The notes below the pieces were generated by a model. That model searched no databases and was not told the origin of the DNA. It worked only from the letters and a program-made list of their open reading frames with translations. 64,000 nucleotides of DNA, taken from Candidatus Omnitrophota bacterium (GTDB taxonomy: Bacteria > Omnitrophota > Gorgyraeia > Aquiviventales > Aquiviventaceae). The translations under genes were made by a program, and so were the position numbers. This document shows, one piece after another, positions 1,806 to 63,738 of this stretch. The number at the start of each line of letters is the position of its first letter. Positions within the stretch are counted from its first letter, which is position 1. The DNA is taken from NCBI GenBank assembly GCA_023247255.1, contig JAHFGV010000006.1, positions 14,231 through 78,230 on the forward strand. Direction: 5' to 3'.

Positions 1806-1808
1806 CGG

Positions 1809-5076: not shown

Positions 5077-5089
5077 TCCTTGAAATCGC

Positions 5090-6612: not shown

Positions 6613-6644
6613 CTCATCCATGAGGATATTTCCCTGAGGATGAA

Positions 6645-8003
6645 ATGGCACTGATCCAGCCCTTTCGCGCCCTTCGCTATAATCCACAGGGTGTGCCTCA
6701 GTTGGGTGCGGTGCTTGCTCCTCCCTATGATGTCATTACGCCCGAGGAACAGCAACGGCTCTATCAGTGCTCTGACTACAACATCGTGCGGCTCATTCTG
6801 GGCAGCCAGTATCCGACTGACCGAGAAGGAGACGATCGTTACAGTCGCGCGAAAGCCGCATTTAACGCCTGGTGTACTCAGGGGGTGTTTTCTCGCGATC
6901 CGACCCTCGCTTTCTACGTCATTGAGCATCAATTCAGTGATTTCGAGACCGATTCGTCGCCCAAACAGAGCGCGCCAGACAAAGGTTTCCAGCAATCGCG
7001 TCTGGGATTCATCGCCCTTCTTGGGTTTGAAGACTCGATGGAGCGAACGGCTTACCGTCACGAGGCCACTTTGACTGCGCCCAAGGCCGATCGAAAGAAG
7101 TTGCTGGAGGCTATTCCAGCGAACCTGAGCCCCATCTTCTGTCTTTATCCGGATCCCGATGGAATCGTCCAGTCCCTGTTGCGGGAGCATGTTCGTAAAA
7201 CCGCTCCAACCGTTGAGGCCCCTTTCAAGCAGGATACCGTTCGATTATGGGTCGCAACCGATGCTTCTTGGATTCAAGAGATTCAGCGGCAACTCGCTGC
7301 GGCGACGGTGCTGATCGCCGATGGCCATCATCGATTTGAAGTTGCTTATGCCCGCAAACATCAGTATCCAGCGCTGATGAGCTATTTTGTTTCCCTCAAG
7401 GATCCTGCGCTTTGTATGCATGCCATCCATCGGGTCGTCCGGCGTGATTCCGAGACAGGGGAGGAACCTCTCAGCCAGCTTTGCACCTTGGAAGCCACGC
7501 AAAATCTTTCTTCAGTGATGATGCGGCTGGGGCACTCTCAGAAGCAACCCGTCCAGCCATCTGAGCCAGGTGCCTTCCATGGACAATTCGGCTTCTATAA
7601 TGGAAAGGTCTGGTACTATGTGAGCTTGAAGCCTCGATCGGTTGAGAGTTGGTTAGGCACTTGTTCCATTCCACAACCCATCGCATCCCTCGACGTATGT
7701 CTTCTGCAACAGTTTCTCCTTCCTAATCTTGTTAACCATGCATCCAAGGTAGGGCAATCGGGGAAGGTTTTAGATGAACAATCCCAGGCGAAGTGGAAGA
7801 TCATCGACTATACCGCATCGGCCAAGCAGGCGGTATGTGCTGTTGACAGAGGCCAAGGGACTGAAGCGTGGTTCTTACGCGCGATGTCTCTTGAGCAGAT
7901 TTACTCGCTGGCAGCTAGAGGGTTTATTCTCCCTCCCAAATCGACCTATTTCTATCCGAAGGTGCTTTCAGGCCTGACGATTAACCCCCTAGCAGGATGC
8001 TGA
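6645..8003 (+). CDS. DUF1015 family protein
   Basis: N-terminus MALIQPFRALRYNP and later ADGHHRFE are the hallmark motifs of DUF1015 (~450 aa). Confidence 0.7.
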   Translation: MALIQPFRALRYNPQGVPQLGAVLAPPYDVITPEEQQRLYQCSDYNIVRLILGSQYPTDREGDDRYSRAKAAFNAWCTQGVFSRDPTLAFYVIEHQFSDFETDSSPKQSAPDKGFQQSRLGFIALLGFEDSMERTAYRHEATLTAPKADRKKLLEAIPANLSPIFCLYPDPDGIVQSLLREHVRKTAPTVEAPFKQDTVRLWVATDASWIQEIQRQLAAATVLIADGHHRFEVAYARKHQYPALMSYFVSLKDPALCMHAIHRVVRRDSETGEEPLSQLCTLEATQNLSSVMMRLGHSQKQPVQPSEPGAFHGQFGFYNGKVWYYVSLKPRSVESWLGTCSIPQPIASLDVCLLQQFLLPNLVNHASKVGQSGKVLDEQSQAKWKIIDYTASAKQAVCAVDRGQGTEAWFLRAMSLEQIYSLAARGFILPPKSTYFYPKVLSGLTINPLAGC

Positions 8004-8356
8004 AAAACCCTTCGTGGTTCAGGGTTCGGGGCAAATACACCACCGTTCGTCGAACCGACTGGCGTTTTTGAGCAGCCTGCTAGAACCTTGGGTCCCCCGT
8101 TCCGATACGGATGCCAGCCGGAGCGGGCACAGCGTGGAGTGCTTGATGGTGCCATGCATGATGGTACCACGGACTTGCTGGTGGGGCTCCACCATGTTAG
8201 GATATTCGCTTTCTACCCCGCCATCGGGCCACGGCCGAAGACATCGGCCCAGTTCCATGGGGCTCCACAAAATCGCGTAAAGTTTTTACAGAAATGTGAG
8301 GCATTTTCTGATACATGGAGGAACCGCGGCTGTAAAGCCGTGGGACATCTCTTAAC

Positions 8357-8596
8357 TGGGCTTTTGCAAAAATAGCCAACGCGTTGACCCAGTGTTGTGT
8401 CCTATTCCAAGAGAAGCAATGAGGATTGTGTCATGTTTCATGAGTCATGTGTCATGAAAAAGCAGAAAATAAACAGGTATCTCAAGCATAGCCAAAGGGG
8501 CTCTTTTGCTTTCCATGACTCATGACACATAACACATGACTCATGACACAGACGTGAGCGCTACCGCTAATCTCGATGCATTTTTCAAAACCTCAG
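8357..8596 (+). mobile_element. MITE-like non-autonomous element, intact copy, + orientation; flanked by a perfect 6-bp TSD, TCTTAA
   Basis: Termini CTGGGCTTTTGCAAAAATAGCC ... GCATTTTTCAAAACCTCAG form ~16-bp imperfect terminal inverted repeats. TCTTAA occurs at 8351-8356 and 8597-8602. Internal ~55-bp imperfect hairpin (CATGAGTCATGTGTCATG...CATGACTCATGACACATG). Confidence 0.8.
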
Positions 8597-8641
8597 TCTT
8601 AACATTGGTTCTCCTGCGATATTGCAAAACAATCTGCTTGC

Positions 8642-8722: not shown

Positions 8723-9568
8723 ATGAAACTGTTTAGTCGGCACCATACAGCCTTTGTGCGGCGATCCAAGAGGGATATTCCCGCAGGCCTGTGGACCAAA
8801 TGCGAATCCTGCGGCCAGTTGATCTACAACAAGGCGCTCGAAGAGCAGCTTCGGGTTTGCTTCAAGTGTGATTTCCATTTTCCATTGTCCGCCCACCAAC
8901 GACTGGCCCTTACCATCGATGCTGGAACCTTTGAGGAATGGGACGCAGAGCTTGCTCCCATCGATCCGCTGCAGTTTGATGTGCCAAAGCCATATCTAGG
9001 GAAGGTGGTTGAAGAGCAACGCGCGTGCGGGATGACGGATGCCTGCATTAGCGGTTGTGGAAAGCTTGAGGGCTACGCTGTCGTGATAGGCATTACCGAT
9101 TCCCGATTCATGATGGGCTCGATGGGCTCGGTGGTTGGAGAAAAACTGACCCGTGCCATTGAACGCGCCACCCATCGACGCTTGCCCCTGATTATCATCT
9201 CTGGATCCGGAGGAGGCGCTCGAATGCAGGAAGGGATGTTCAGCTTGATGCAGATGGCTAAAACCTCCAGCGCCTTGATGCGTTTTGACGAACAAGGAGG
9301 ATTATTCGTCTCGGTGCTGACTCATCCAACCATGGCTGGTGTTCTGGCCAGCTTTGCGACGTTGGGAGATATTATCCTCGCGGAGCCCAAGGCCCTGATC
9401 GGTTTTACCGGACCCCGTGTCATCGAATCGACGATTCGGCAAAAGCTGCCGGAAGGTTTTCAGCGTTCCGAATTCCTCCTCGAACACGGTCTCATTGACT
9501 TGATTGTGCATCGTCGGGATATGAAGCTTACCATCGCCCGTCTCATTCGCCATCTCATTCCCAGTTAA
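8723..9568 (+). CDS. accD: Acetyl-CoA carboxylase carboxyltransferase subunit beta
   Basis: N-terminal zinc ribbon (CESCGQLIY...CFKCDFHF) followed by the carboxyltransferase domain (GSMGSVVGEK...SGGARMQEG). The stop TAA sits inside the TSD of the downstream MITE. Confidence 0.85.
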   Translation: MKLFSRHHTAFVRRSKRDIPAGLWTKCESCGQLIYNKALEEQLRVCFKCDFHFPLSAHQRLALTIDAGTFEEWDAELAPIDPLQFDVPKPYLGKVVEEQRACGMTDACISGCGKLEGYAVVIGITDSRFMMGSMGSVVGEKLTRAIERATHRRLPLIIISGSGGGARMQEGMFSLMQMAKTSSALMRFDEQGGLFVSVLTHPTMAGVLASFATLGDIILAEPKALIGFTGPRVIESTIRQKLPEGFQRSEFLLEHGLIDLIVHRRDMKLTIARLIRHLIPS

Positions 9569-9570
9569 AA

Positions 9571-9811
9571 GTGGGCTTTTGCAAAAATAGCCAACGCGTT
9601 GACCGAGTGTTATGTCCTATTCCAAGAGAAGCAATGAGGATTGTGTCATGTTTCATGAGTCATGTGTCATGAAAAAGCAGAAAATAAACAGGTATCTCAA
9701 GCATAGCCAAAGGGGCTCTTTTGCTTTCCATGACTCATGACACATAACACATGACTCATGACACAGACGTGAGCGCTGCCACTAATCTCGATGCATTTTG
9801 CAAAACCTCAG
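9571..9811 (+). mobile_element. MITE-like element, intact copy, + orientation; TSD TTAAAA
   Basis: Same termini (GTGGGCTTTTGCAAAAATAGCC ... GCATTTTGCAAAACCTCAG). TTAAAA at 9565-9570 (includes the accD stop codon) and at 9812-9817. About 97% identical to the copy at 8357. Confidence 0.8.
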
Positions 9812-9839
9812 TTAAAATAAAAACAGGGGAGTTGGGCAC

Positions 9840-20460: not shown

Positions 20461-20556
20461 CTTACATTTTGTGTCATGTTTCATGTGTTATGCAAAAGCG
20501 AGTAAAAGCGGATGGAAAGCTGTTTTGCTTTCCATAACACATAACACATAATACAA
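20461..20556 (+). repeat. Degenerate hairpin-core derivative of the MITE-like element
   Basis: GTGTCATGTTTCATGTGTTATG...GCTTTCCATAACACATAACACATAA resembles the internal hairpin of the 235-bp element but lacks the TIR ends. Confidence 0.45.
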
Positions 20557-21393: not shown

Positions 21394-21425
21394 TCAATCG
21401 ACAATTGACAATCGACAATCGAACA
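21394..21425. repeat. Short tandem heptamer array (AATCGAC/AATTGAC)x4
   Basis: CAATCGACAATTGACAATCGACAATCGAAC immediately upstream of the rmlB start. Confidence 0.5.
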
Positions 21426-24940: not shown

Positions 24941-25870
24941 ATGACGCGCTATCTGGTTACGGGTGGAGCAGGATTCATAGGCTCACATATTGTGGATCGG
25001 CTGGTGGCTCAAAACCATCAGGTCCGCGTTTTGGATGATCTGTCTTGCGGACGACTCGAAAACTTAGACTCTGTCCGCGACCGAATCGAGTGGATGAAAG
25101 CGGATATCTGTGATCGTCAGGCTGTCGCTTGTGCGGTTGAGGGAAGCCAGCGCGTCATCCATGCAGCCGCCTGGAGAAGTGTTCCGAAATCGATGGCCGA
25201 TGCCTGGGGATATACACAGGTCAATGTCTTGGGAACGGTCAACCTGCTTGAGGCCGCCTCCAAGGCCAAGGTCGAACGCTTTGTCTGTGTTTCCTCAAGC
25301 TCCGTCTATGGCTTGAGTGACCAAATTCCCATGCGTGAAGAGCAGCCGGCACTACCCATTTCCCCTTACGCGGCATCCAAACTTGCCGATGAGTTGTTCT
25401 GTGGGCTGTTTGCCAGGAGCTTCAACCTACAGACAACAGCGGTGCGCTATTTCAATGTCTTCGGCCCTCGTCAGAGTCTGGACAACGACTACGCGGTTGT
25501 GATTCCTAAATTCATCAGTTGTCTGCTGAAAGGCCAATCCCCTCCGATTTACGGCGATGGCCGGCAATCCAGGGATTTTACCTACGTGGATAACGTCGCT
25601 GAAGGAACGATTCTAGCTTCTCAGGTTCCAGGAGTCAGTGGGGAGGTTTTCAATCTCGCTTTGGGTGAGGAGCATACGGTGTTGGAACTGCTGGAAGAAC
25701 TCAACAAGATAATGGGATTGAAAATCGCTCCCCTGTTTAAACCTGCCCGAGCCGGGGATGTTTTGCGAACATTAGCGGACTCCTCCAAGGCCAAACACCT
25801 GCTGGGATGGAAAGCCTGCGTGTCTTTTTCCGAAGGACTGCGTCGAACCGTCGATTGGTTTCGTCTTTAA
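24941..25870 (+). CDS. NAD-dependent UDP-HexNAc(A) C4-epimerase (WbpP/TviC-like SDR)
   Basis: [16 protein letters not shown], catalytic YAASK, ...VRYFNVFGPRQ...AVIPKF...YGDGRQSRDFTYVDNV, closely matching the WbpP/TviC subgroup. Confidence 0.7.
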   Translation: MTRYLVTGGAGFIGSHIVDRLVAQNHQVRVLDDLSCGRLENLDSVRDRIEWMKADICDRQAVACAVEGSQRVIHAAAWRSVPKSMADAWGYTQVNVLGTVNLLEAASKAKVERFVCVSSSSVYGLSDQIPMREEQPALPISPYAASKLADELFCGLFARSFNLQTTAVRYFNVFGPRQSLDNDYAVVIPKFISCLLKGQSPPIYGDGRQSRDFTYVDNVAEGTILASQVPGVSGEVFNLALGEEHTVLELLEELNKIMGLKIAPLFKPARAGDVLRTLADSSKAKHLLGWKACVSFSEGLRRTVDWFRL

Positions 25871-25893: not shown

Positions 25894-26157
25894 CTGGGCT
25901 TTTGCAAAAATAGCCAACGCGTCGACCGAGTATTGTGTCCTATTCCAAGAGAAGCAATGAGGATTGTGTCATGTTCCTAAGATCCAGTACTCACGTCTGT
26001 GTCATGTTTCATGTATCATGAAAAAGCAGAAAATAAACAGGTACCTCAAGCACGGCCAAAGTACGCCTTTTGCTTTCCATGACTCATGACACATGAAACA
26101 TGAAACAGTCCTTCATGACACCTGACACATGACTCATGAAACAGACGTAAGTACTGG
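25894..26157 (+). mobile_element. MITE-like element, variant copy with internal ~27-bp insertion and truncated or rearranged 3' end
   Basis: 5' end CTGGGCTTTTGCAAAAATAGCCAACGCGTCGACC; internal TCCTAAGATCCAGTACTCACGTCTGT insertion shared with the copy at 63502; the 3' TIR is not recognisable. Confidence 0.7.
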
Positions 26158-26254
26158 AGCTTAGGATCATGATTTACTTTCTTCTTGGCACTGGTCGTTT
26201 TCCCTTATCTCTCCCCCCACACCCCGCGCCCCTTATTGGTACTGCTCACTAACA

Positions 26255-41950: not shown

Positions 41951-42831
41951 GACGACTCGTCGCGACTCTCGCCTGCCGAGTGCAGGGCAGTCGGCTTTAC
42001 GGCAAGCCGCTGCAGCATTTGGATGTAGAGAACAGGGTGACGATTTTAGAGCACCTGATTAGTCTTATCCAGACGCTGCCATGCATCGAGGCTGTAGTCT
42101 TGGGCATCGCTCGAGGAGTAGAGAATGAACCGTTTCGGGACATCGCACGACGCCGGGGCATTGCCTTCATCATGGGAGATCAGCGGGACGTTTTGCAGCG
42201 GTTGATTCAGTGTGGGCGCAAGGCCCGTGGCACCGATGTGTTTCGGGTCACGACGGAGTCGCCGTTTTTCTACTACGAAGTCGTTGCGGACGCCTGGCGA
42301 CGACACATCGAAGCAGGCAATGACGTGACTACCTTCGACGGGGTACCCGCGGGCTCGTTTTTCGAAATCTATAGTCTCGAAGCCTTGGAGCGATCACACC
42401 GACTGGGGGATAAGAGGCATCGGTCTGAATATTGCAGCCTCTATGTCCGTGAACATCTCAAGGACTTTCAAGTTGAGGTGTTACCGATTCCTCCAGAGCT
42501 TGAACGCCTGGATCTGCGCTTCACGGTCGACTACCCGGAGGATCTGGTAGTCTGCCGTCAGGTGTACGAACATTTCAAAGCCCAGGCGCCACGCCTGCCT
42601 CTTCGCGACATTATTCGGTATGTAGATAGCCAGCCTCAGTTGAAAGCCCTAGTAGTACCCTATGTCGTCTCAAAACGACTCTGGTTTCTTCCCAGCCGTG
42701 AGCCAACTTGCTCTGCCGCCACCTGGTCTGCCGGTCAGAACCAGGCATCTAGCAATCTTAGCAGGCTGCGGAAAAACGCCACGCTTGCTCAAGGCTCGAG
42801 GCTTTTGGCTAGAGATCCAACGAATCGTTGA
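41947..42831 (+). CDS. Cytidylyltransferase of the PseF/SpsF/NeuA-like family (CMP-nonulosonate synthetase candidate)
   Basis: N-terminal RLYGKPL...nucleotide-binding region and C-terminal RFTVDYPEDL motif typical of CTP_transf_3 enzymes. Confidence 0.6.
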   Translation: MRRLVATLACRVQGSRLYGKPLQHLDVENRVTILEHLISLIQTLPCIEAVVLGIARGVENEPFRDIARRRGIAFIMGDQRDVLQRLIQCGRKARGTDVFRVTTESPFFYYEVVADAWRRHIEAGNDVTTFDGVPAGSFFEIYSLEALERSHRLGDKRHRSEYCSLYVREHLKDFQVEVLPIPPELERLDLRFTVDYPEDLVVCRQVYEHFKAQAPRLPLRDIIRYVDSQPQLKALVVPYVVSKRLWFLPSREPTCSAATWSAGQNQASSNLSRLRKNATLAQGSRLLARDPTNR

Positions 42832-42860
42832 TTGTCAATCGTCGATTGTCGATTTGTTGG
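42822..42860. repeat. Short heptamer array (reverse orientation: AAATCGAC AATCGAC GATTGAC AATCAAC)
   Basis: CGAATCGTTGATTGTCAATCGTCGATTGTCGATTTG lies between the cytidylyltransferase and pseI. Confidence 0.5.
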
Positions 42861-49620: not shown

Positions 49621-50312
49621 AGGCGGTGCTCTTCGACCTTGACGACACCCTCTATCCAGAACGTGAGTTCGTCACAAGCGGCTTTAGGGTTGTGGCGCGC
49701 TACCTGAGTGCACGGCATCCACTGAATAATGAAGAGGATCTGGTTCGCCAGATGTTCGCGATCTTGCAGCGCGAGGGTAGAGGGCATGTGTTCGATCGGC
49801 TACTCGATCATATAGGGCTAAATGGATCCGTGTCGGTCATGACCTTAGTCTATCTCTATCGCTCCCAGCAACCGTTACTCCACCTCTACGACGATGTTCT
49901 ACCAACACTGAAACAGCTTCGAGGTTTTGGCATGCGCTTAGGTTTGCTGACGGATGGGCAGGCCTGTGTCCAGCGTAATAAAATCGCTGCGCTGGATTTG
50001 GCTGATCCGTTTGATGTGATTATCTGTACAGATGAATTAGGCCGGGATTGTTGGAAACCCGCGCCCGTTTCTTACCAGGTCGCCTTACAGCTCTTAGATG
50101 TGTCCCCGGGGCAGGCCATCTATGTCGGTGATGATGCTTCTAAAGATTTCGTGGCTCCGTATGCTTTAGGCATGATGACGGCACAAATCATCCGGTCCGA
50201 CAGACCGCAACGCCAGGAGTCACCGGCTTCTGCCGATGGGGCTCATTGGGTCATCACGCGGTTGGAACAGTTGACATCAATCCTTGGGGTACCAGCCAAT
50301 GTCTTCGGGTGA
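49617..50312 (+). CDS. HAD-superfamily hydrolase (phosphatase, subfamily IA)
   Basis: MKAVLFDLDDTLY (DxD nucleophile motif I) ... LLTDG ... GDDASKD. Confidence 0.7.
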   Translation: MKAVLFDLDDTLYPEREFVTSGFRVVARYLSARHPLNNEEDLVRQMFAILQREGRGHVFDRLLDHIGLNGSVSVMTLVYLYRSQQPLLHLYDDVLPTLKQLRGFGMRLGLLTDGQACVQRNKIAALDLADPFDVIICTDELGRDCWKPAPVSYQVALQLLDVSPGQAIYVGDDASKDFVAPYALGMMTAQIIRSDRPQRQESPASADGAHWVITRLEQLTSILGVPANVFG

Positions 50313-51375
50313 GCCGTTTATCGAGATTCGTGGGCGGCGGATCGGGCCGGGATTTCCCACCTATATCATCGCTGAAATATCTGCCAATCACCGGCAGCGA
50401 TTTGACGATGCGGCAGCTCTTGTCAGGACAGCCAAAGATGCTGGGGCGGATGCTGTCAAAGTGCAGACCTATACGCCGCAGACGATGACCATTGAGGGGG
50501 ATTCTGATTTGTTTCGGCACGGTGCTGGATCTTTGTGGGCTGGCAAAACACTCTATGAGCTTTACCAACAAGCCTATATGCCTTGGGACTGGCAGCCGCG
50601 TTTGAAGGAGTTAGCCAGGGAACTTGAGATAGAATGGTTTTCTACGGCCTACGATACAAGCGCAGTCGAGTTCCTCGAGGCTATGGAAGTGCCAGTTCAC
50701 AAGGTGGCTTCTTTTGAGTTGGTGGACATCCCATTGATCAGTATGATGGCGCGGACTGGAAAGCCGCTGATTCTATCGACGGGAATGGCCAGTTCTGAAG
50801 AGATTACAGACGCGGTGCACGCAGCGCATCAAGCCGGTGCCACACAGGTGGCGTTGTTGAAGTGCACCAGCGCCTATCCAGCTCCTCCAGAATCGATGAA
50901 CCTCCGTGCGATTCCGCATTTGGCAAGGGCATTTCAGGTGCCCGTGGGACTCTCCGACCATACGCTGGGCGTTGCTGTGCCCATTGCAGCAGTTGCATTA
51001 GGAGCCTGCCTCATTGAGAAACATCTGACCTTGTCGCGAGCATTGCCGAGCGCGGATTGTGCTTTTTCGCTGGAGCCTAATGAATTTGAGGCGATGGTAG
51101 AAGCCATTCGGACGGCGGAACGCGCGATGGGACGAAGCGACATTGGGACCACGGAGCAGGAGAGCAGCAGTCGCGCTTTTCGGCGCTCATTATTTGTGGT
51201 GAAAGCCGTGCAAGCTGGCGAGGCGTTCACGGCGCAGACGATTCGTTCCATTCGTCCTGGCCATGGCCTGCCCCCAAAGTTCCTCAGTCAGGTGCTTGGG
51301 CGGCGAGCGGCACATGCTATCGCTGCCGGAACGCCGCTTGCCTGGGATCTCATCGAGACTGATGGAACATCCTAA
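50299..51375 (+). CDS. NeuB-family nonulosonic acid synthase paralog 3 with SAF domain
   Basis: YIIAEISANHRQRF...GADAVKVQTY, LSDHT, IEKHLTL, C-terminal SAF. Trimmed to the Met after the GTG-type track start. Confidence 0.7.
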   Translation: MSSGEPFIEIRGRRIGPGFPTYIIAEISANHRQRFDDAAALVRTAKDAGADAVKVQTYTPQTMTIEGDSDLFRHGAGSLWAGKTLYELYQQAYMPWDWQPRLKELARELEIEWFSTAYDTSAVEFLEAMEVPVHKVASFELVDIPLISMMARTGKPLILSTGMASSEEITDAVHAAHQAGATQVALLKCTSAYPAPPESMNLRAIPHLARAFQVPVGLSDHTLGVAVPIAAVALGACLIEKHLTLSRALPSADCAFSLEPNEFEAMVEAIRTAERAMGRSDIGTTEQESSSRAFRRSLFVVKAVQAGEAFTAQTIRSIRPGHGLPPKFLSQVLGRRAAHAIAAGTPLAWDLIETDGTS

Positions 51376-51544
51376 GCAGGCTGCTGAAAAAGGCGCATCT
51401 GCTGCGTTGCCAGCCTCGCGGCTTCGTCAGCGTACTTTTCAGTACGCCTCCTCAGCCGAATCGAGCTGCGCCTTGCATCTCGCACCTTTTTGAGCAGCCT
51501 GGGTATCACGCGAGTTTTTCCGCAGCCTGCTAGTGCTTCGACCA

Positions 51545-51894: not shown

Positions 51895-52621
51895 AGAGAA
51901 GGTCGCCATCGTCACCGGAGCAAGTCGAGGCATTGGCAAGGCGATCGCCACAACGTTTGCCAAACAGGGAGCCCAGTTGGTCATCACGGGCCGCAGTAGC
52001 GCCATTCATGAGGTAGCCTCTGAGCTGTCAACGCATGGAGAGCGAGTCGTGGCCATGCAGGGTGATCTTAGAGAGCCTGCCCACCGGCGTGAGGTCGTGA
52101 TGGCCTGTCGTAAGACGCATGGCCGTCTCGACATCCTGGTCAATAACGCGGGAGTGCTGATTCATGGTCCGCTTGGGATGACTCTGCTTGAGTCCATGCG
52201 AGACGCCTTCGAGACGAACGTAACTGCGGCGATGGCGCTGACCCAATATGCAATACGCCTGATGAGTCCTGCTCGTGATCCCTGCGTCATTAACCTTGCT
52301 TCCTTTGCCGGCACGCGTGGCCAAGAGGGCCTTGCGATCTACGCAGCCAGCAAGGCTGCGGTCGTTGGATTTACCCTCTCGACGGCGAAAGAACTAGCCT
52401 CCCAGAGAATCCGCGTCAATGCAATCGCCCCGGGCTTTATCGAGACCGACATGACCCAGGCGCTGCCCGAAGCGATCTATCGCACCATGACTGAACGGAT
52501 ACGGCTCGGACGGATCGGCGTGCCCCAGGATGTGGCGAATTGTGCCTTGTTTCTGGCATCGGATCTTGCTTCCTATATCACAGGCCAAGTGATCGGTGTA
52601 GATGGGGGCCTGCTAGCATGA
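51884..52621 (+). CDS. fabG: 3-oxoacyl-[ACP] reductase-type SDR
   Basis: KVAIVTGASRGIGKAIA, NNAG, YAASKAA, PGFIETDMT. Confidence 0.75.
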   Translation: MLLKEKVAIVTGASRGIGKAIATTFAKQGAQLVITGRSSAIHEVASELSTHGERVVAMQGDLREPAHRREVVMACRKTHGRLDILVNNAGVLIHGPLGMTLLESMRDAFETNVTAAMALTQYAIRLMSPARDPCVINLASFAGTRGQEGLAIYAASKAAVVGFTLSTAKELASQRIRVNAIAPGFIETDMTQALPEAIYRTMTERIRLGRIGVPQDVANCALFLASDLASYITGQVIGVDGGLLA

Positions 52622-54039
52622 TCGATTTTATTCGTCAGCATCGTTCGAAGCATCCAGCCGTCATCGACACAGATCGAAACCAAGTGCTATCGTATGAAAC
52701 GCTCTATGACCAAATGGAGCAGATTGCTCTGGCCATCCGCCACCTGACAAGGGATCGAACGCTGGTGTTTCTCCACTCCTCAGCGACGAGTGACTTCCTC
52801 ATCCTGTACCTCGCGTGTCTTTTTAATCGCGATCCGGTATGCTTGCTTGAGTCCGGCTTGCTGGAAGCGACGGAGAAACTGCTCGCCGCGTATCATCCGA
52901 ATCTTGTGCTGAGCCCACCCGGAATGTCAATTCCAGAGGGATACAGCGATGCTGGCAGAATCCCGGGCACCTGCTACAACTGCGCTGTGCCGAAATCAAA
53001 CCCTGCCCCCCAGAAACTTCATCAGGATCTGGCTCTGTTGCTGCCGACGTCCGGGACGACCGGCAATCCTAAATTGGTGCGACTGACCCAAAAGAACCTT
53101 CAGGCCAACGCCCAATCCATCGCACAGTATCTGGACCTATCACCCGATGAGCGCTCCATCCAGGGACTGCCTATGCACTACGCCTATGGCCTGTCGTTGG
53201 TCAACTCGCATCTGGTGGCGGGAGGGACCATCGTCTTGACTCGCTGGTCCTTCCTGCAAGCCGAGTTCTGGCGCACCTTTGACGCCCAGCGGTGCACGTC
53301 GTTTGCGGGTGTGCCGTATATGTACGAAACCCTTGATCGTCTTGCGTTCGATCCCGCCTGTCATCCATCGCTGCGGACCATGACCCAAGCGGGTGGGGCG
53401 TTGCGTCCGGATATCGTTCGCCGCCTTGGGCGCGCGGTGGCGAAGGCTGGCTGTCGGTTGTTCATCATGTACGGCCAGACGGAAGCAACCGCTCGGATCA
53501 GCTACGTACCCCCACAGCTCCTCCAGGAGAAAATCGGCTCCATCGGAATCCCTATTCCTGGAGGAAGAATGGAACTTGCTGAACTTGAGGCAACTGAAGG
53601 GTTAAAAGAGCTTGTCTATTTCGGCCCCAACGTGATGATGGGCTATGCGACGTCGGCGGCATCCCTAGCGCAGGCAGACGAGTTACACGGGAAACTCTTT
53701 AGCGGTGATCTGGCACGGGTGGATAACGATGGTTTTTTTTATATCACCGGACGCCTGAAACGATTCGCAAAGCTCTTCGGCCGGCGGATCAGTCTGGAGG
53801 ACATTGAGGCAAACTTAGAGTCCTCATTCACCGTGCGTGCCGCGGCGATCGAGGCTGATGAGCATCTGAGCGTCTACATTGAGGGAGGGGATTCCTCGGA
53901 TGCTGATAGGATCAGGCAATACCTCGCATCGTGGTTGCAGATGAGTCCGATTGCTGTGACGGTCAAGCCGATCGAGAGGATTCCAATGACTTGCTCAGGA
54001 AAGAAAGCCTATCCGGCGTTACTGGTGGAGGCGGCTTAA
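52618..54039 (+). CDS. AMP-dependent synthetase/ligase (acyl-CoA/acyl-ACP ligase)
   Basis: AMP-binding signature LLPTSGTTGNPKLV, ...YGQTEA..., C-terminal Lys region; ATGA-coupled to fabG. Confidence 0.7.
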   Translation: MIDFIRQHRSKHPAVIDTDRNQVLSYETLYDQMEQIALAIRHLTRDRTLVFLHSSATSDFLILYLACLFNRDPVCLLESGLLEATEKLLAAYHPNLVLSPPGMSIPEGYSDAGRIPGTCYNCAVPKSNPAPQKLHQDLALLLPTSGTTGNPKLVRLTQKNLQANAQSIAQYLDLSPDERSIQGLPMHYAYGLSLVNSHLVAGGTIVLTRWSFLQAEFWRTFDAQRCTSFAGVPYMYETLDRLAFDPACHPSLRTMTQAGGALRPDIVRRLGRAVAKAGCRLFIMYGQTEATARISYVPPQLLQEKIGSIGIPIPGGRMELAELEATEGLKELVYFGPNVMMGYATSAASLAQADELHGKLFSGDLARVDNDGFFYITGRLKRFAKLFGRRISLEDIEANLESSFTVRAAAIEADEHLSVYIEGGDSSDADRIRQYLASWLQMSPIAVTVKPIERIPMTCSGKKAYPALLVEAA

Positions 54040-55166
54040 TGAGCGCAATCGAGCTTGAGCTTCCGGTCATAAGTGATTTTTTTGACCTTCCACCCTATGG
54101 GCTGCCACAATCGCAGAAGGCCCAGATGCTCGTGATTCGTCTGCGGCAACTGTGTTGGCATCATTATGAGCGCTGCGTCATCTACCGACGACTCATCGAG
54201 CGGGTGTTTGGGGGCGAGGACGCGCTGAACTTCGAGCGATTGGAAGAAGTCCCCTTCATCCCCGTCCCATTGTTCAAGACGCATGCGTTGCGCAGCGTTC
54301 CAGCGGAGGCCGTTGTGAGAACCCTCGCCTCAAGCGGCACGAGCGGTCAGGTTCTCAGCCGCGTCGAGCTCGATCGTGAGACCAGTCAGCGCCAGACTCA
54401 AGTGCTGGTAAAAATCCTCCAACATTTCCTCGGGCCTCGTCGCTCCCCCATGGTCATCTTTGATCGGAAAGTGGCACTCGATCAGCCAGGTCCCTATCCG
54501 GCAAGGGTCGCGGCTCTATTGGGGATGATGCCCTTTGGGCGCGATCCGTTCTTCGCCTTAAAGGAAGACTTGTCGCTGGATATTGAGGGTTTGAGCGCCT
54601 ATCTTGCACGGGCGAGTGGAGCGGGCGGGGAGCGCGTGGTCGTCTTTGGGCTTACTGCGATTCTCTGGCAAGCGCTGGTTTTAACTATGGAGCGAGAGGG
54701 AAAGAAGCTACATATCCCTCAGGGTGTGCTCATCCACGCGGGAGGGTGGAAGAAACTTCAGGATGCCGCTGTGGGAGCCGAGGAGTTCCGGCAGAGGGTC
54801 CAAGCCGTCACAGGAATCTCGCGCATCCTCAACTTCTACGGGATGGTAGAGCAGGTGGGAAGCATCTTCTTTGAAAATCCGCGGCATTACTTGCAGGCCC
54901 CTGTCTATGCTGAGGTTATCATCCGTGATCCCATAACGCTGCGGCCTTTACCCGTCGGCGGCGTGGGACTGGTTCAGGTGCTCAGCGCGATTCCCACGAG
55001 TTATCCCGGCCACTCTCTCCTTACTGAGGATATGGGGGTCCTTCGCGGAGTGGATGATCCAACGACAGGGATGAATGGACGGTACTTTGAAATCCTGGGA
55101 CGCGTTCCGCAAGCTGAGGTGCGTGGATGCAGCGATACCTACCCGACTCAACACTCAACGACGTAG
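54039..55166 (+). CDS. luxE: LuxE-family acyl-protein synthetase
   Basis: ~375 aa with SSGTSGQVLSRVELD and overall LuxE-like organisation; start overlaps the ligase stop (TAATG). Confidence 0.6.
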   Translation: MSAIELELPVISDFFDLPPYGLPQSQKAQMLVIRLRQLCWHHYERCVIYRRLIERVFGGEDALNFERLEEVPFIPVPLFKTHALRSVPAEAVVRTLASSGTSGQVLSRVELDRETSQRQTQVLVKILQHFLGPRRSPMVIFDRKVALDQPGPYPARVAALLGMMPFGRDPFFALKEDLSLDIEGLSAYLARASGAGGERVVVFGLTAILWQALVLTMEREGKKLHIPQGVLIHAGGWKKLQDAAVGAEEFRQRVQAVTGISRILNFYGMVEQVGSIFFENPRHYLQAPVYAEVIIRDPITLRPLPVGGVGLVQVLSAIPTSYPGHSLLTEDMGVLRGVDDPTTGMNGRYFEILGRVPQAEVRGCSDTYPTQHSTT

Positions 55167-55297
55167 AGCTTGGCAGTCAGGGCCCTCGCGCTGAAGAAAT
55201 CCTCAATCGTCAGCAGAGCCCCACCCCCGATGCTTCGCTTTGTCCCTTGAAATCGCCGACAGGCGATTTCAGGGATCCAATCCCCGACAAACTCCAC

Positions 55298-56557
55298 ATG
55301 TCAGGGAACGAAGCAAAGCCTGGGGGTGCTATGGCGGGGCTGCGCATCCTGGCTCCCCGAAAATCTGAGAGTCCTCTCGCGGATTGGCTGGCTTCGTGCC
55401 GGTTTTCAAACACCCATCCCTTTGCGGCTTCACGCATCCAGTTGCTTGGGGCATTCTCACAACGCATCCTCAAAGATCCGATTCTTCGCGATGAGCCCTC
55501 AAGCGTAGCCCTGGCCTACTACTTACGCCCAGCGAACATTACGAAAATCGCAACGCATGCTCAAGCACGCGCCAAGCTTGATCCTTCCGTTCTCTGGGTG
55601 CCTTGCGGTGGGGTGTTCCATGTGGCTCCGGCTAATGTGGAGACTTTTTTCATCTACCCTTGGGCTTTGTCCTATCTTTGCGGGAACAACAATCTCGTTC
55701 GCCTCTCCCTGGAGGAGCAACCGGTAACGATGCGGCTGCTTGAGTGCCTAAACACTCTGATGGAAACCGAGGAGGAACTCTCTCATACAAACCGGTTTGT
55801 GACCTACCCGCACGATCCTGAGATTACCAGGCTGTTCTCCGACTGGTGCGCCCATCGCATCATCTGGGGAGGGGATGAGGTCATTAGAGTCCTGCGCTCG
55901 ATTCCACTGAGCCCTCATGCGACCGAGCGTGTCTTTGGCTCGAAATTCTCCTACGCCGTCATTTCGGCAATGTCCTTTCAGGAAGCTGATGAAGCGACGC
56001 GGCAGCAGGTCATCTCCCGGTTTTTCAACGACATGTTCTGGTTCAACCAGATGGCCTGTTCCTCTCCCCACGTGGTATTCTGGGTTGGCACGAAGGCCGA
56101 TGGGGCGCGTGCAGTGGCAGCGTTCAATCCATTGCTGGGTGCTGAGGTTTTGCGTCGGGGATATGCCCTGCCACCACAGCTTAGCGTCCGGCGGCTCTCG
56201 CAGGCCTTTGAACTTGCCATCCAGGATGACGTTCGGGTTGATCTTAAGCATCCGGGATTCGCGAGTATCGATGTGCCACAGCTGTCTGTGTTGCGCAAAG
56301 AGCCTTATGGAGGAGGACTGTTGCACCATGTCCAGATCGATCGTTTGGATCGACTCCTTGAAGTCGCAGCGCCCAAGGACCAGACCATCGTCCATTTCGG
56401 CTTTCATCCTGATGAACTGCAAAGTCTGGCGTTTCGCATCGGCTCTCGAGGGGTGGATCGTCTTGTGCCTATCGGTGAGGCACTGACATTTGAGGTGGTA
56501 TGGGATGGACAGGATATGATCAGCGATGGTTTACGGAAGGTCGTGATTCGATGCTAA
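55298..56557 (+). CDS. luxC: LuxC-family acyl-CoA (acyl-protein) reductase, putative
   Basis: ~420 aa following luxE, the canonical LuxC partner position; start uncertain (55298 or 55331). Confidence 0.5.
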   Translation: MSGNEAKPGGAMAGLRILAPRKSESPLADWLASCRFSNTHPFAASRIQLLGAFSQRILKDPILRDEPSSVALAYYLRPANITKIATHAQARAKLDPSVLWVPCGGVFHVAPANVETFFIYPWALSYLCGNNNLVRLSLEEQPVTMRLLECLNTLMETEEELSHTNRFVTYPHDPEITRLFSDWCAHRIIWGGDEVIRVLRSIPLSPHATERVFGSKFSYAVISAMSFQEADEATRQQVISRFFNDMFWFNQMACSSPHVVFWVGTKADGARAVAAFNPLLGAEVLRRGYALPPQLSVRRLSQAFELAIQDDVRVDLKHPGFASIDVPQLSVLRKEPYGGGLLHHVQIDRLDRLLEVAAPKDQTIVHFGFHPDELQSLAFRIGSRGVDRLVPIGEALTFEVVWDGQDMISDGLRKVVIRC

Positions 56558-57987
56558 CTGAAACTGCCAAGCCGCGTGTCCTGATTGGACTGCCAAGCGA
56601 CATCTTCCTTAGAAATTTTGTGGAGACGAAGGCGTTTACGAGTCTGAGTGAACGCTTTGAGGTCTTCTGGTTTACCACCGAGGCGGTTCGCCATGCGCTG
56701 CCAGAACTTCCCGGCTTTACCCGCGTGGAATCCTGCAAGATAGATCCACGACGGGATATGATCCGCTACCATCTGCGTTGGTTGGCGGTTTTTGCTGGAC
56801 GTTCACGCAGTAGGCTTATGCGGTTGAAGGCCTTGAGCGTGGGATCCAGGCGCGAGCGGTGGCCGTATACGCTTCTGAGTGCGCCGGGTGTCTGGCCGAT
56901 TACGGATGCGCTCGTTGAGGCATGGCTAGGTCAGAACCAGTCGCTTGCGGCGATCTTCGATGCGGTCAAGCCGGACGTGGCGGTCTTCCCCTCGCAGGGC
57001 AATGATTCCTTCGCCATCGACATCATGAAAGTAGCAAAGTCGCGGAGGGTTCATACGGTAATGCTCAACTACAATTGGGACAATATGGGATCCAAAGGCG
57101 CCATGAGGATCAAGCCCGATCGGCTCTGTGTCTGGGGAGAAGATATGGCAGCCTTGGCGCGGCAGGTCCATCACCTGCGGCCAGAGCAGATTCGGATCAT
57201 CGGAGCCGCCCAGTTCCAGCAATATTTTGATCCCGAGCAGATGGCTGCCGCATCACGCGCCGCGGCGCAATCCCCTCAGGAGCCACCGCGGCTTTTATTT
57301 GCGGGAGCATCTCGAGGTCATCCTGAGGCTCGGTTTCTTAAGACCCTCGATGAAGCCATCGAGACCCATCGCTTGCCAGCGCTTCAGATCATCTATCGGC
57401 CGCATCCCTGGCGTGCGCCTCGTCCGCATGAAAACCCCTTTCACGCCTATGGCTACCGTCATATCACGATGGATCGGCAAGTCGCTGGTCAGTTTATGGT
57501 CGATGATATGAACGCACCCACCAAGCGCGTCGATTACACGTTTGCGCCCTCGATTGCGTACAACGCCGAATTGCTCCACTCAATCCGTGGGGTCATAACG
57601 CCTCTGTCGACTCTCTCCTTGGAAGCAGCCTTGGTCGGCGTACCGGTGCTGGCGATTCACTTTCCCGAGGAACGTTGGCTGAAGGATGCGCTGGATAACT
57701 TTGAACACTTACAGCGGATGTGCCGTCAGGTACCCGGCGTCGTAATCTGTCGCGAGGAACCTCGCTTCCTCGAGGCTGTCCGGCAACTCTTGGAACTGGG
57801 AGGTGATCCGACGCTTCCGGCTCGGATGCGAGAAGCCATCAAGCCGATTCTCTATGCCGATGGCGCCACGACCTATGCGGATCGGCTCGCCAGCGTTATT
57901 GAGGAAGTCTTGGGAAAGCGAGAGAATCTATCCAAGATGCAAGAGCCTGTGGAGTCCTGTATTCCCGTTGAAGGCTGGGTGAGGTAA
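56551..57987 (+). CDS. Unknown ~480-aa soluble protein, possibly a GT-B-fold transferase (candidate nonulosonate or glycerophospho-transferase)
   Basis: Two Rossmann-like alpha/beta halves; no confident family match from sequence reading; 7-bp overlap with luxC. Confidence 0.35.
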   Translation: MLTETAKPRVLIGLPSDIFLRNFVETKAFTSLSERFEVFWFTTEAVRHALPELPGFTRVESCKIDPRRDMIRYHLRWLAVFAGRSRSRLMRLKALSVGSRRERWPYTLLSAPGVWPITDALVEAWLGQNQSLAAIFDAVKPDVAVFPSQGNDSFAIDIMKVAKSRRVHTVMLNYNWDNMGSKGAMRIKPDRLCVWGEDMAALARQVHHLRPEQIRIIGAAQFQQYFDPEQMAAASRAAAQSPQEPPRLLFAGASRGHPEARFLKTLDEAIETHRLPALQIIYRPHPWRAPRPHENPFHAYGYRHITMDRQVAGQFMVDDMNAPTKRVDYTFAPSIAYNAELLHSIRGVITPLSTLSLEAALVGVPVLAIHFPEERWLKDALDNFEHLQRMCRQVPGVVICREEPRFLEAVRQLLELGGDPTLPARMREAIKPILYADGATTYADRLASVIEEVLGKRENLSKMQEPVESCIPVEGWVR

Positions 57988-58025: not shown

Positions 58026-58142
58026 TAACCCTCGACGATTGCATCACGATATTGTCGATTAACGATTGTCGATTTTCGATTGAACAGCGGGCTTCCAATC
58101 GAAAATCCAAAATCGACAATCGAAAATTCCAACGTGTGGGAG
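58026..58142. repeat. Palindromic heptamer-repeat element, copy B (near-identical to 5090-5183) with 3' extension AACGTGTGGGAGTGCCGGTGC
   Basis: CGATTGCATCACGATATTGTCGATTAACGATTGTCGATTTTCGATTG...CAATCGAAAATCCAAAATCGACAATCGAAAATTCC. Confidence 0.65.
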
Positions 58143-58228
58143 TGCCGGTGCTTCAGCGAGCGGGTGGGCGGGATGTCGTTTCCTGAAATCGCAAAACGAT
58201 TTCTGATTGATGAGATGAAAGTGCTCTT

Positions 58229-58283
58229 CAATCGAAAATCCAAAATCGACAATCGAAAATTCCAACGTGTGGGAGTGCGGTGC
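58229..58283. repeat. Direct repeat of the right arm of copy B (55 bp, including AACGTGTGGGAGTGCGGTGC)
   Basis: CAATCGAAAATCCAAAATCGACAATCGAAAATTCCAACGTGTGGGAGTGCGGTGC duplicates 58087-58142. Confidence 0.65.
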
Positions 58284-61230: not shown

Positions 61231-62374
61231 AATCTGTGTAGTCGTGACGGCCCGTCCCAGCTACGCCCGGATCAAATCCGCGCTGCGTCATATCCAAGCG
61301 CATCCCGATCTCGAGCTACAACTGGTGGTCGCGGCCTCAGCGTTGCTGGATCGTTATGGCAGCGCCGTCGCCTACATTGAGCAGGATGGATTCGACATCG
61401 CAGCCCGGGTCTACATGGTGCTTGAAGGGGGCAATCTCACCACGATGGCCAAGACGACCGGGCTTGGCATCATCGAGTTGGCCACGGCCTTCGATAACCT
61501 CAAGCCGGACGTCGTGGTGACGATCGCGGATCGCTACGAAACGCTTGCCACGGCGCTGGCGGCCGCTTACGCCAACATCCCTGTGGTTCACGTTCAGGGA
61601 GGAGAGGTGAGCGGGTCCATCGATGAAAAGGTCCGGCACGCCGTGACCAAGCTATCGGACATTCATTTTGTGGCCAATCAGCAGGCAGCCGATCGGGTCA
61701 TACGCATGGGGGAGCATTCCGATCGCGTGTTTGTCACAGGCTGCCCCTCGATTGATCTCGCAGCCGAGGTGCTTCAAAACGCCGAGCTCGATTTTGATCC
61801 TTGTGAGCGATTCGGTGGAGTGGGACCGCGCGTGGATACGCGGGAAGATTATCTGATCGTCATGCAGCATCCGGTGACCACCGAGTACGAGGATGCCCAG
61901 CATCATGTTCAGGAAACCCTTCACGCTGTGCTTGAGCTGGGGATTCCCACCCTGTGGTTCTGGCCCAACGGTGATGCTGGGTCCGATGGGACGTCAAAAG
62001 GGATTCGCATCTTTCGCGAAGAGCATCATGAGATCCCCATCCACTTTTTTCGGCATATGGGACCTGAGGAATTTCTACGCGTGGCCTACCATAGCCGATG
62101 CCTGGTAGGCAACTCAAGCGTGGGGATTCGGGAATGTTCTTTCCTCGGTATTCCCACCGTGAATATCGGATCCCGACAGACCGGGCGCGACCGGGCAGGA
62201 AACGTCATCGACGTGGATTATAACCGGGGGGCGATTGTCGAGGCTGTGCGCAAGCATCTGGCCAATGGCCGATACCATTCGGATTCTCTCTACGGAGACG
62301 GCTCCTCCGGAGGCCGCATCGCCCAACGCTTGGTGAGTGTTCCCTTAACCATTGAGAAACGTCTGACCTATTGA
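61217..62374 (+). CDS. neuC: UDP-N-acetylglucosamine 2-epimerase (hydrolysing), NeuC/LegG-like
   Basis: KICVVVTARPSYARIKS...PDVVVTIADRYETLA...PVVHVQGGE: NeuC-type signatures. Confidence 0.75.
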   Translation: MKRRKICVVVTARPSYARIKSALRHIQAHPDLELQLVVAASALLDRYGSAVAYIEQDGFDIAARVYMVLEGGNLTTMAKTTGLGIIELATAFDNLKPDVVVTIADRYETLATALAAAYANIPVVHVQGGEVSGSIDEKVRHAVTKLSDIHFVANQQAADRVIRMGEHSDRVFVTGCPSIDLAAEVLQNAELDFDPCERFGGVGPRVDTREDYLIVMQHPVTTEYEDAQHHVQETLHAVLELGIPTLWFWPNGDAGSDGTSKGIRIFREEHHEIPIHFFRHMGPEEFLRVAYHSRCLVGNSSVGIRECSFLGIPTVNIGSRQTGRDRAGNVIDVDYNRGAIVEAVRKHLANGRYHSDSLYGDGSSGGRIAQRLVSVPLTIEKRLTY

Positions 62375-63501
62375 TGCCACCAGTGATGCCACCAGACACC
62401 GCCACCTACGCGATTGGAGACGTCGATTCCTTCGGTTTGAGCTTGGAGGAAGTCTGCTCCTTTTACCAGAAACACTGGAAGCGCCCCATTGCCTTGGCAT
62501 TGCCACAGTTTTATCAGTGGCAGTTTCGGCAAAGCCCGGATAATCAGGGCAAGGACCGATGCGTCGTGATCGTGGATGAGGATAAGCGTCTGTGTGGCGT
62601 GATGGGACTCAATGAAAGAAGGTTTTTCTTGGATGGGCGCGGACTTCGAGGCGCTGAGCTGACAACTTGGATTATTTCTGAATCCTGTCGCGGGACCGGC
62701 CAGAGCCTTGCGATGCTGGAGTATCTTCAAGATCACTACGAGGTACTCATCGGCATGGGAGTGACTCAAGAGGCCCTTCCTGCCTACCTGCGGTGTGGGT
62801 TTAAGCAGATTAGGCACATTCCTCGATACGTCCGGTTGTTTCATCAGGCAGAGAACATCCGTTCGATCATTCGCGTGGAGCCCTTTGGGCTATCCCTGAT
62901 GCGACGCAACACTGCTCAGGCAAACGTTTCTTACCTTGTACGTTCCATTCCCATCGCTGAGCTGGCTATCCATGAGCCGATTCTCCGTCAGCACTTCCAT
63001 ACTTTCAGCCGCGAGGCCGCCTACCTGAAATGGCGTTATACCGACCATCCCGTGTACCGTTATGAAGCTTTCCAGATCGAATCCGGAGGGCATGCCATGG
63101 CGGTTGTTTTGCGCGTGGATGAGAAAGAGACTTTGAAGATTCTCCACGTAGTCGATGCATTTGGAGATCTTCAGGCGCTTGCCGCTGTCGTCCATTTCTT
63201 GGAAGACTACGCGCGTCAGCACTTAGTGGATCTGGCCGATGTGTATGCCCTCTCGGATACCCTGGGGCATGTTTTTTGGACGATGGGCTGGTACTCCGTG
63301 CTTAATGATGAATGGATACAGGTGCCGCATCTGTTTCATCCAATTGAGCTGAAGAGCCCACCCACAACCTCACTCATCGCTTGGGCCAAGCAGGAAATGG
63401 ATCAGTTGTTGGATCAAACACGGCTCCATATCACCAAAGGAGATTGTGATCTGGATCGGCCCACCCTCCAGTACCTGCAAGAGCAGGATATCAGCCTATA
63501 A
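62371..63501 (+). CDS. FemAB/BioF2-like (GNAT-fold) acyl/aminoacyl-transferase family protein
   Basis: ~370 aa with GNAT-like core (...CVVIVDEDKRLCGVMGL...TWIISESCRGTGQSLAMLEY...). Size and position next to a polysaccharide deacetylase match the FemAB-related family of exosortase-type EPS loci. ATGA-coupled to neuC. Confidence 0.45.
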   Translation: MMPPVMPPDTATYAIGDVDSFGLSLEEVCSFYQKHWKRPIALALPQFYQWQFRQSPDNQGKDRCVVIVDEDKRLCGVMGLNERRFFLDGRGLRGAELTTWIISESCRGTGQSLAMLEYLQDHYEVLIGMGVTQEALPAYLRCGFKQIRHIPRYVRLFHQAENIRSIIRVEPFGLSLMRRNTAQANVSYLVRSIPIAELAIHEPILRQHFHTFSREAAYLKWRYTDHPVYRYEAFQIESGGHAMAVVLRVDEKETLKILHVVDAFGDLQALAAVVHFLEDYARQHLVDLADVYALSDTLGHVFWTMGWYSVLNDEWIQVPHLFHPIELKSPPTTSLIAWAKQEMDQLLDQTRLHITKGDCDLDRPTLQYLQEQDISL

Positions 63502-63717
63502 CTGGGCTTTTGCAAAAATAGCCAACGCGTTGACCGAGTGTTGTGTCATGTTTCTAAGATCCAGTACTTACGTCTGTTTCATGAGTCATGTGTTATGTGT
63601 CATGAAAAAGCAGAAAATAAAAAAGTGCTCCTTTTGCCTTCCATGACTCATGACACATGAAACATGACACAGACGTGAGCACTGCCACTAATCTCGATGC
63701 ATTTTGCAAAACCTCAG
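63502..63717 (+). mobile_element. MITE-like element, copy with intact TIRs; TSD CTATAA
   Basis: CTGGGCTTTTGCAAAAATAGCC ... GCATTTTGCAAAACCTCAG; CTATAA at 63496-63501 (contains the upstream gene's TAA stop) and at 63718-63723. Confidence 0.8.
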
Positions 63718-63738
63718 CTATAAGTGATCAGTAGAACT

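Follow-up and report, generated by a model that had tools for sequence, protein, structure and literature searches.

A probable miniature inverted-repeat transposable element family with heptamer-armed hairpins in a genome of the Candidatus Omnitrophota

What is the 216-nt sequence that separates the gene at 62374-63501 from the following polysaccharide-deacetylase-like gene in a Candidatus Omnitrophota genome, and how did related sequences come to lie at other gene ends nearby? We analyzed this question in a window of 64,000 nt (assembly GCA_023247255.1, contig JAHFGV010000006.1, positions 14,231 to 78,230 of the forward strand); all coordinates refer to this window unless stated otherwise. 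The sequence at 63502 belongs to a family that most probably represents a MITE (miniature inverted-repeat transposable element), mobilized in trans by a DDE transposase that makes 6-bp staggered cuts. This assignment is based on the small size, the absence of a transposase open reading frame (ORF), the terminal inverted repeats (TIRs), the target-site duplications (TSDs) of fixed length and variable sequence, and the dispersed copies. These features agree with the definition of bacterial MITEs in PMC3184786, as far as it is testable in the window.

For a census of the family, an nhmmer model derived from four long copies was run on the window. It recovered exactly six loci and no others, which agrees with direct reading, repeat detection and multiple alignment and confirms the six-locus repeat family proposed in an initial annotation of this DNA. 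Three loci are intact copies of 216-241 nt and three are partial, namely a hybrid at 25894-26171, one half of a copy on the reverse strand and a core hairpin that stands by itself (Table 1). The boundaries initially given for the 9571 and 63502 copies were correct, whereas the copy upstream of accD starts at 8356 rather than 8357 and the first base of the 9571 copy is G, not C. The locus at 25894, initially listed as 25894-26157, does exist, but extends to 26171, is not intact and lacks the right end TTTTGCAAAACCTCAG; neither a TSD nor any flanking direct repeat of at least 5 nt was detected there. The half copy next to dnaK is also present in a strain variant in which this locus is 96.9% identical, and the solo hairpin at 20469-20556, which may be a relic or a native structure, fills a gap of 107 nt between two sugar-nucleotide genes.

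Table 1. Features of the repeat family and of a second hairpin family in the window.
Feature	Coordinates	Strand	Evidence or remark
Intact copy of 216 nt; layout L-module B-heptamer hairpin with short loop-R1, without module A	63502..63717	+	Alignment, profile
Left TSD CTATAA, including the TAA stop (63499-63501) of gene 62374-63501	63496..63501	+	
Right TSD CTATAA, followed by a 15-nt spacer and ATG 63739 of the polysaccharide-deacetylase-like gene	63718..63723	+	
5' TIR CTGGGCTTTTGCAAAA	63502..63517	+	14/16 versus reverse complement of 3' end
3' TIR TTTTGCAAAACCTCAG	63702..63717	+	
Core hairpin with 31-nt loop; arms of 46 nt (83% complementary) built from tandem 7-nt units NNTCATG / CATGANN	63562..63684	+	Inverted-repeat search, TRF period 7
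Intact copy of 241 nt; layout L-A-hairpin-R1; upstream of accD	8356..8596	+	TSD TCTTAA at 8350-8355 and 8597-8602
Intact copy of 241 nt between accD and the MalK-like ABC ATPase gene	9571..9811	+	TSD TTAAAA at 9565-9570 and 9812-9817
Left end L with module A; part of a copy that is hybrid or rearranged	25894..25969	+	Begins 24 nt past the stop of gene 24941-25870
Self-contained foldback; heptamer hairpin enclosed by separate inverted ends (TCATGTTCCTAAGATCCAGTAC... / ...GTACTGGAGCTTAGGATCATGA)	25970..26171	+	
Half copy L-A-left arm, cut in the hairpin loop	248..372	-	Within 2 nt of the dnaK TAA (246-248)
Solo core hairpin; 28-nt arms of TGTGTCA / CATAACA heptamers; without L or R ends	20469..20556	+	Profile E = 6e-10
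Second hairpin family	5086-5198, 58032-58130, 58223-58278, 21395-21425, 42823-42855		No TIRs or TSDs; some half copies

Evidence for transposition comes from the ends of the intact copies. When the 5' end CTGGGCTTTTGCAAAA of the 63502 and 9571 copies is compared with the reverse complement of the 3' end, CTGAGGTTTTGCAAAA, 14 of 16 positions agree, in line with the imperfect TIRs of about 16 bp initially described for the intact copies; the similarity ends at position 16, with none beyond. The 8356 copy shows one substitution in its 3' TIR (TTTTTCAAAA). In general, intact copies begin with (C/G)TGGGCTTTTGCAAAA and finish with TTTT(G/T)CAAAACCTCAG. Ten of the 16 TIR positions form the self-complementary palindrome TTTTGCAAAA, which, with at most one mismatch, was found 13 times compared to 2.9 expected occurrences. 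All three intact copies are flanked by perfect 6-bp direct duplications, and the three sequences (TCTTAA, TTAAAA, and CTATAA) are all different. Based on random placements in the window with fixed boundaries, a perfect 6-mer flank match is expected with a probability of 3.7e-4 per copy, so that its occurrence in three of three copies is far beyond chance; allowing a slip of 2 nt at each end raises this value to 6.5e-3. The joint chance of three perfect and mutually different duplications at the TIR boundaries is below 1e-6. The initial statement that each copy is flanked by a perfect 6-bp duplication thus holds for the three intact copies, but not for the three partial loci, which have none.

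Intergenic, hairpin-forming and abundant sequences with a palindrome (TTTTGCAAAA) at both ends might also be REP/BIME-like repeats or IS200/IS605-type palindromes moved by a tyrosine HUH enzyme (RAYT or TnpA-Y1). REP and IS200/IS605-type elements are not known to carry transposon-type TIRs or to duplicate their target, and they insert beside a fixed short motif. The family in the window has none of the IS200/IS605 hallmarks (absence of TIRs, absence of a TSD, integration on the 3' side of a constant tetra- or pentanucleotide); its flanks are duplicated and differ between copies, the unit of 216-241 nt far exceeds REP size, and the window was found to contain neither a Y1 nor a RAYT gene. We regard an origin of this type as very improbable.

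A second line of evidence came from related loci without the element. Two Omnitrophota loci, L175 and L176, retain the gene order DUF1015-accD-ABC and have no homolog of the element. The gap between accD and the ABC gene amounts to 8 nt in L176 and 100 nt in L175 compared to 271 nt in the window, where it consists of 241 nt of element, 6 nt of TSD and 24 nt of other sequence; both loci are too diverged from the window for a comparison of the site at the base level. Removal of the element and one TSD leaves short spacers at both sites, 24 nt between accD and the ABC gene and 15 nt between gene 62374-63501 and the next gene. At the latter site, the gene calls of a 2,265-nt contig from another sample (ERZ27297570) show a 94%-identical variant of gene 62374-63501 (P0127) with the same C-terminus and the next plus-strand gene 18 nt past its stop codon. 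This distance equals that obtained from the stop codon, 15 nt and the second of two ATG codons, which is the start in the L049 gene call, after removal of the element and one CTATAA. With the element in place, the corresponding position is taken by AGC and not by a start codon; an in-frame start first occurs after another 18 nt. Judged from the gene-call spacing alone, a sister population with a precise empty site at the 63502 locus therefore appears to exist. The prediction is that the contig with P0127 contains ...CAGCCTATAAGTGATCAGTAGAACTATGATGG..., i.e., a single CTATAA followed by GTGATCAGTAGAACTATGATGG. In another contig, which encodes a 98%-identical variant of gene 62374-63501, 163 nt past the stop codon are without a called gene, which would fit an occupied site.

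The 8356 and 9571 copies lie 1.2 kb apart and are 98% identical, yet their TSDs differ, and we therefore consider them to be recent, independent insertions, possibly followed by gene conversion. The alternative that accD is the cargo of a MITE-flanked composite was rejected, because each copy has a TSD of its own and the order DUF1015-accD-ABC is ancestral.

A multiple alignment revealed that the element is modular, with a 46-nt left end, optional modules A and B, the hairpin with a long or a short loop, and a right end of about 40 nt. The left end is identical at 42-45 of 46 positions among five loci with unrelated flanks. Tandem heptamers of the CATGACA type make up the hairpin arms, which measure 31-46 nt (TRF period 7; inverted repeats). 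In single-stranded form, the complete unit with its TIRs is predicted to fold into one rod-like hairpin. The predicted RNA folds have energies of -70.9 kcal/mol for the 9571 copy (z = -3.1), -81.1 kcal/mol for the 63502 copy (z = -8.6; one rod hairpin) and -93.9 kcal/mol for the foldback at 25970-26171 (z = -6.9). Folding and inverted-repeat searches thus agreed with the long imperfect hairpin core recognized initially. The GC content of the element is 42-43% compared to 53.6% in the window, and its ORFs comprise just 30-57 amino acids, none of them conserved between copy types. The further suggestion that each insertion supplies a terminator-like structure was not supported. The stems are A/T-rich heptamer arrays, and no terminator with a G+C-rich stem followed by a T-run was found inside or at the end of the elements; a sigma-70-like promoter was likewise not found within them. 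The element may have an RNA-level role, e.g., as RNase III target or as 3' stabilizer.

The strong predicted structure might suggest a family of structured non-coding RNA genes. However, Rfam gave no match at gathering thresholds across the whole window, and the one match below threshold, a plant miRNA precursor with 21.6 bits compared to a cut-off of 245 bits, is a generic hairpin match. The copies differ by whole modules and not by compensatory substitutions. An assembly artefact would be another explanation, as the contigs are metagenome-derived and metagenome assemblies break at the element copies, which is expected for a multi-copy repeat. Against this, the junctions flanking accD and the 63502 copy are reproduced in independent ENA and Logan assemblies with 99.9-100% identity, and the 63502 copy is identical in two independent metagenome assemblies, so the repeats are not an artefact of one record. 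Both explanations, RNA gene family and artefact, can be given hardly any weight. A further element copy was seen in the metagenome contig L001 (ENA ERZ27280021, contig k141_3990464). Positions 1-251 of this contig consist of unique sequence and a different inverted copy, about 94% identical and ending in ...CTGGATCTTAGAA, fused to the right end of the 8356 copy. This join is either a chimera created when the assembly crossed the repeat or a recombined arrangement carried by part of the population.

The 25894 locus raises the question whether the family comprises one element or two. Two nested or recombined elements would consist of an outer MITE shell (L, R1 and the TIRs with TTTTGCAAAA) and an independent foldback bounded by TCCTAAGATCCAGTAC and GTACTGGAGCTTAGGA. 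At 25894, L and module A are followed by a complete foldback with inverted ends of its own and without R1, and the foldback is flanked by TCATGT and TCATGA, possibly a 6-bp duplication with five of six positions matching. The 63502 copy has only the left B module, a core hairpin stands alone at 20469-20556, and the end of the L001 copy together with the 25894 hybrid suggests a second end type (..CTGGAKCTTAGRA). On the other hand, only one complete foldback unit was seen, and its flanks are the element's own heptamer units, which makes the match of five positions a weak one. Furthermore, L001 may be chimeric, and module B of the 63502 copy just lengthens the stem by pairing with R1-proximal sequence. 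We consider a two-element origin unlikely, and it overlaps with the single-MITE explanation, since both units would still be non-autonomous mobile DNA.

Heptamer-armed hairpins are not confined to this family. A second family (ATTGTCG/ATTGACG ... CAATCGA/AAATCGA; also AATCGAA) occupies gaps just after stop codons in the window, e.g., at 5086-5198 and 58032-58130 (Table 1). In L175, hairpins with period-7 arms (CAGACAN, AAGCACA) at 3950-4125, 6020-6100 and 6555-6655 immediately follow grpE, dnaK and the gene after it, and in L176 a hairpin at 150-245 with period-9 arms (AACCGGCTT) is located directly downstream of dnaK. These hairpins, together with the possibility that the 98% identity of the 8356 and 9571 copies reflects gene conversion over 1.2 kb, would fit native 3'-end hairpins, i.e., terminators or mRNA stabilizers, that were multiplied by recombination or gene conversion and whose TSDs are coincidental. 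This explanation is difficult to reconcile with three perfect, differing duplications located exactly at the TIR boundaries, with a left end that is conserved at five loci in unrelated surroundings, with the empty site deduced for a sister population and with the lack of a canonical terminator signature, and it has in our view a low probability. Repeat-armed hairpins of locus-specific sequence look like a lineage-wide habit, and the presence of hairpins without TIRs in the same genome and in relatives leads us to propose that the MITE probably packaged, or evolved from, a hairpin typical of the lineage. In L175, heptamer arrays also extend into coding sequence, with five CAGCAGA units in the 3' end of dnaK. 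A third inverted-repeat motif (GCAGGMTGCTGAAAAA ... TTTTTGAGCAGCCTGC, 20-nt arms, 90% complementary) is present at two gene ends of the window, at 7989-8083, where it overlaps the stop codon of the DUF1015 gene (8001-8003), and at 51374-51503, directly following the stop of gene 50284-51375.

A preference of the element for stop codons, proposed in the initial annotation, could not be established. A real stop codon lies inside the TSD at two of the three sites, those of accD (9566-9568) and of gene 62374-63501, as initially described, and the half copy lies no more than 2 nt from the dnaK stop. In the third TSD, TCTTAA, the TAA ends no ORF of at least 30 amino acids. Since the original spacers measured only 24 and 15 nt, insertions that spare both neighboring genes necessarily fall at or near a stop codon. 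By our estimate, a uniform null model places a stop codon within the TSD at about 0.13-0.2 of the permitted positions per site, and a choice of A/T-rich targets would favor TAA contexts regardless and raise this value; the number of informative sites is two to three. Four of the five TIR-bearing loci are co-directional with the genes, which is not significant.

The search for a transposase and for relatives of the element was extended from the window to large sequence collections. In agreement with the initial annotation, Pfam scans of window ORFs revealed no transposase domain in any ORF scanned. The exact left-end 18-mer had 41 matches in 185,579 species genomes, among which the host species is not represented, all of them attributable to chance and of at most 26 nt. 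A 20-mer gave two matches in JGI metagenomes, both due to chance, and in IMG/VR the degenerate TIR pattern as well as both end patterns gave chance matches only. The sole inverted pair in IMG/VR with the size of an insertion sequence (IS; L138, 1.49 kb) was ruled out, as it is located in phage structural genes. When all six frames of the element were translated, concatenated and used as protein query, no spurious ORFs of other copies were retrieved, an exact look-up of the 42-amino-acid internal ORF gave no match, and blastn against plasmids yielded only a chance match of 31 nt. A literature search for TTTTGCAAAA in combination with transposase retrieved only irrelevant eukaryotic work.

Several points weigh against the assignment as a MITE. 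An autonomous partner with matching ends was detected neither in the window nor in the genome, metagenome or viral contig collections, outside of which the host genome lies. TSDs occur at the three intact copies only, and at three of the six loci one end or both are missing. As ten of the 16 TIR positions belong to the palindrome, the inverted-repeat signal beyond it is limited to CTG.G./.C.CAG. The empty site was deduced from gene-call coordinates alone; exact look-ups of the predicted fragments of 46-48 amino acids were negative, and the short-query homolog search missed even the known full-length protein. Finally, the core may be a native structure rather than derived from a transposon, since heptamer-armed hairpins without TIRs are found also elsewhere in this genome and in relatives.

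Taking these points into account, we still favor a MITE and propose the following mechanism, in which DDE chemistry, mobilization in trans, the target preference and slippage are inferred. A transposase encoded elsewhere in the genome, outside the window, would bind the 16-nt ends CTGRGSTTTTGCAAAA, move the 216-241-bp unit and integrate it at A/T-rich hexamers by a 6-bp staggered cut, the repair of which would generate the 6-bp duplications. The autonomous partner is expected to carry the ends CTGRGSTTTTGCAAAA ... TTTTGCAAAASCYCAG. The heptamer arrays presumably gain, lose and reshuffle units by slippage and recombination, which would give rise to the variants that differ in modules A and B and in the length of the loop (long or short), and to decayed or hybrid copies. 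In a compact genome, only insertions into the spacers of 15-100 nt between co-directional genes would survive, which could explain why the copies are found at stop codons or beside them; where the duplication comprises the TAA, the upstream gene would stay intact.

The element itself is ordinary mobile DNA. Its description documents an apparently active MITE family in the Omnitrophota, a phylum known only from metagenomes, and the copies explain the fragmentation of the assemblies of this organism around accD. The ends CTGRGSTTTTGCAAAA and the 6-bp duplication provide a handle for finding the transposase once a complete genome is at hand, and the heptamer-armed core together with the similar hairpins without TIRs hints at an intergenic structure used throughout the lineage. 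A more far-reaching idea, to which we assign little probability, is that Omnitrophota use hairpins with arms of tandem 7- or 9-nt units as a general 3'-end or inter-cistronic RNA structure and that the MITE is a mobile carrier thereof, preferring TAA hexamers at gene ends and being under selection. If true, the element would be a 3'-UTR module that can transpose and alter the processing of operons, and it would be selected rather than merely tolerated.

With respect to the host, the closest named homologs of accD, with about 83% identity, are from Candidatus Omnitrophica metagenome-assembled genomes, and the proteins of the window are singletons or near-singletons at 90% clustering. The window is very compact and almost entirely coded on the plus strand, with a median gap of about -1 nt in a greedy ORF map. 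It includes the hrcA-grpE-dnaK-dnaJ region, the DUF1015 gene, accD, the ABC ATPase gene, genes for GGDEF proteins, and a large cluster for sugar and nonulosonic-acid biosynthesis. Between dnaK and dnaJ, a block of small genes (402-3800) adjoins the truncated element copy and contains a DUF5674 gene, several ORFs without Pfam domain and a gene for a retropepsin-like aspartyl protease (PF13650). L176 and L175 have zero or one gene in this position, and the block may be an inserted island. The region of about 350 nt between the DUF1015 gene and the 8356 copy (8004-8355) has no convincing ORF and no Rfam match; it contains a 15-nt tandem duplication at 8140-8169, and the interval after the DUF1015 gene in the relatives measures only 60-223 nt. 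Within the sugar cluster, genes for an acyl-CoA synthetase and for LuxE-like and LuxC-like acyl-protein synthetase/reductase proteins are embedded among NeuB-type nonulosonic-acid synthase genes (52540-57987; L048 3263-8632), which suggests an unusual acylated sugar product. About 3.3 kb past the end of the window, the same cluster includes a gene with bAvd / 23S-rRNA-IVP domains (PF22296, PF05635; L048 17953-18309). Proteins of the bAvd type accompany diversity-generating retroelements; no reverse transcriptase was seen in the L048 stretch fetched.

Among known systems, REP/BIME sequences are similar in being abundant extragenic palindromes of compact genomes, but they measure about 20-40 nt, are not known to have TSDs and are associated with a RAYT gene. 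SPRITE and other terminator-like dispersed repeats of S. pneumoniae (PMC3049150, PMC3184786) are likewise intergenic hairpin repeats downstream of genes; the element differs from SPRITE by its much longer stem, which is not followed by a U-tract, and by its TIRs and TSDs. In its duplication length and initial C, the element resembles some IS families. The IS1634 family, the ISDol1 group of ISNCY and some IS481 members typically generate 5-7-bp duplications, and IS1634 ends start with C; this similarity is a lead only, as neither a transposase nor a full-length IS with CTGRGSTTTTGCAAAA ends was found. The closest counterparts are the bacterial MITEs, such as Correia/NEMIS of Neisseria, RUP of S. 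pneumoniae, ERIC/IRU and YPAL of enterobacteria, Nezha of cyanobacteria and MITEAba12 of Acinetobacter (reviewed in PMC3184786 and PMC6382973). Like these, which measure about 100-450 bp, the element is small, has TIRs and TSDs but no transposase gene, is intergenic and present in many copies, folds into a long stem-loop and occurs also in truncated and hybrid forms. It shares no sequence similarity with any of the named MITEs, its TIR is built around the palindrome TTTTGCAAAA and its core is made up of tandem heptamers in inverted arrays. Correia and RUP elements duplicate TA and MITEAba12 duplicates 9 bp, in contrast to the 6 bp observed here. No literature pairing Omnitrophota with MITEs was found, and the element represents a new family of a familiar type, from a phylum for which the literature searched reports no MITE. 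Intergenic heptanucleotide repeats are known from the cyanobacterial STRR sequences and from repeats with the unit TAACTGA in Beggiatoaceae, Cyanobacteria and Bacteroidetes (PMC4679880), and heptamers are described as the commonest long simple repeats in bacteria (Mrazek et al., 2007, as cited in PMC4679880). The arrays of the element share with the repeats of PMC4679880 the period of 7, the intergenic location, the lineage-specific units and probable slippage. Unlike these repeats, which are positioned just upstream of start codons, they are located downstream of stop codons and form inverted pairs that fold into a hairpin inside a mobile unit bounded by TIRs and TSDs.

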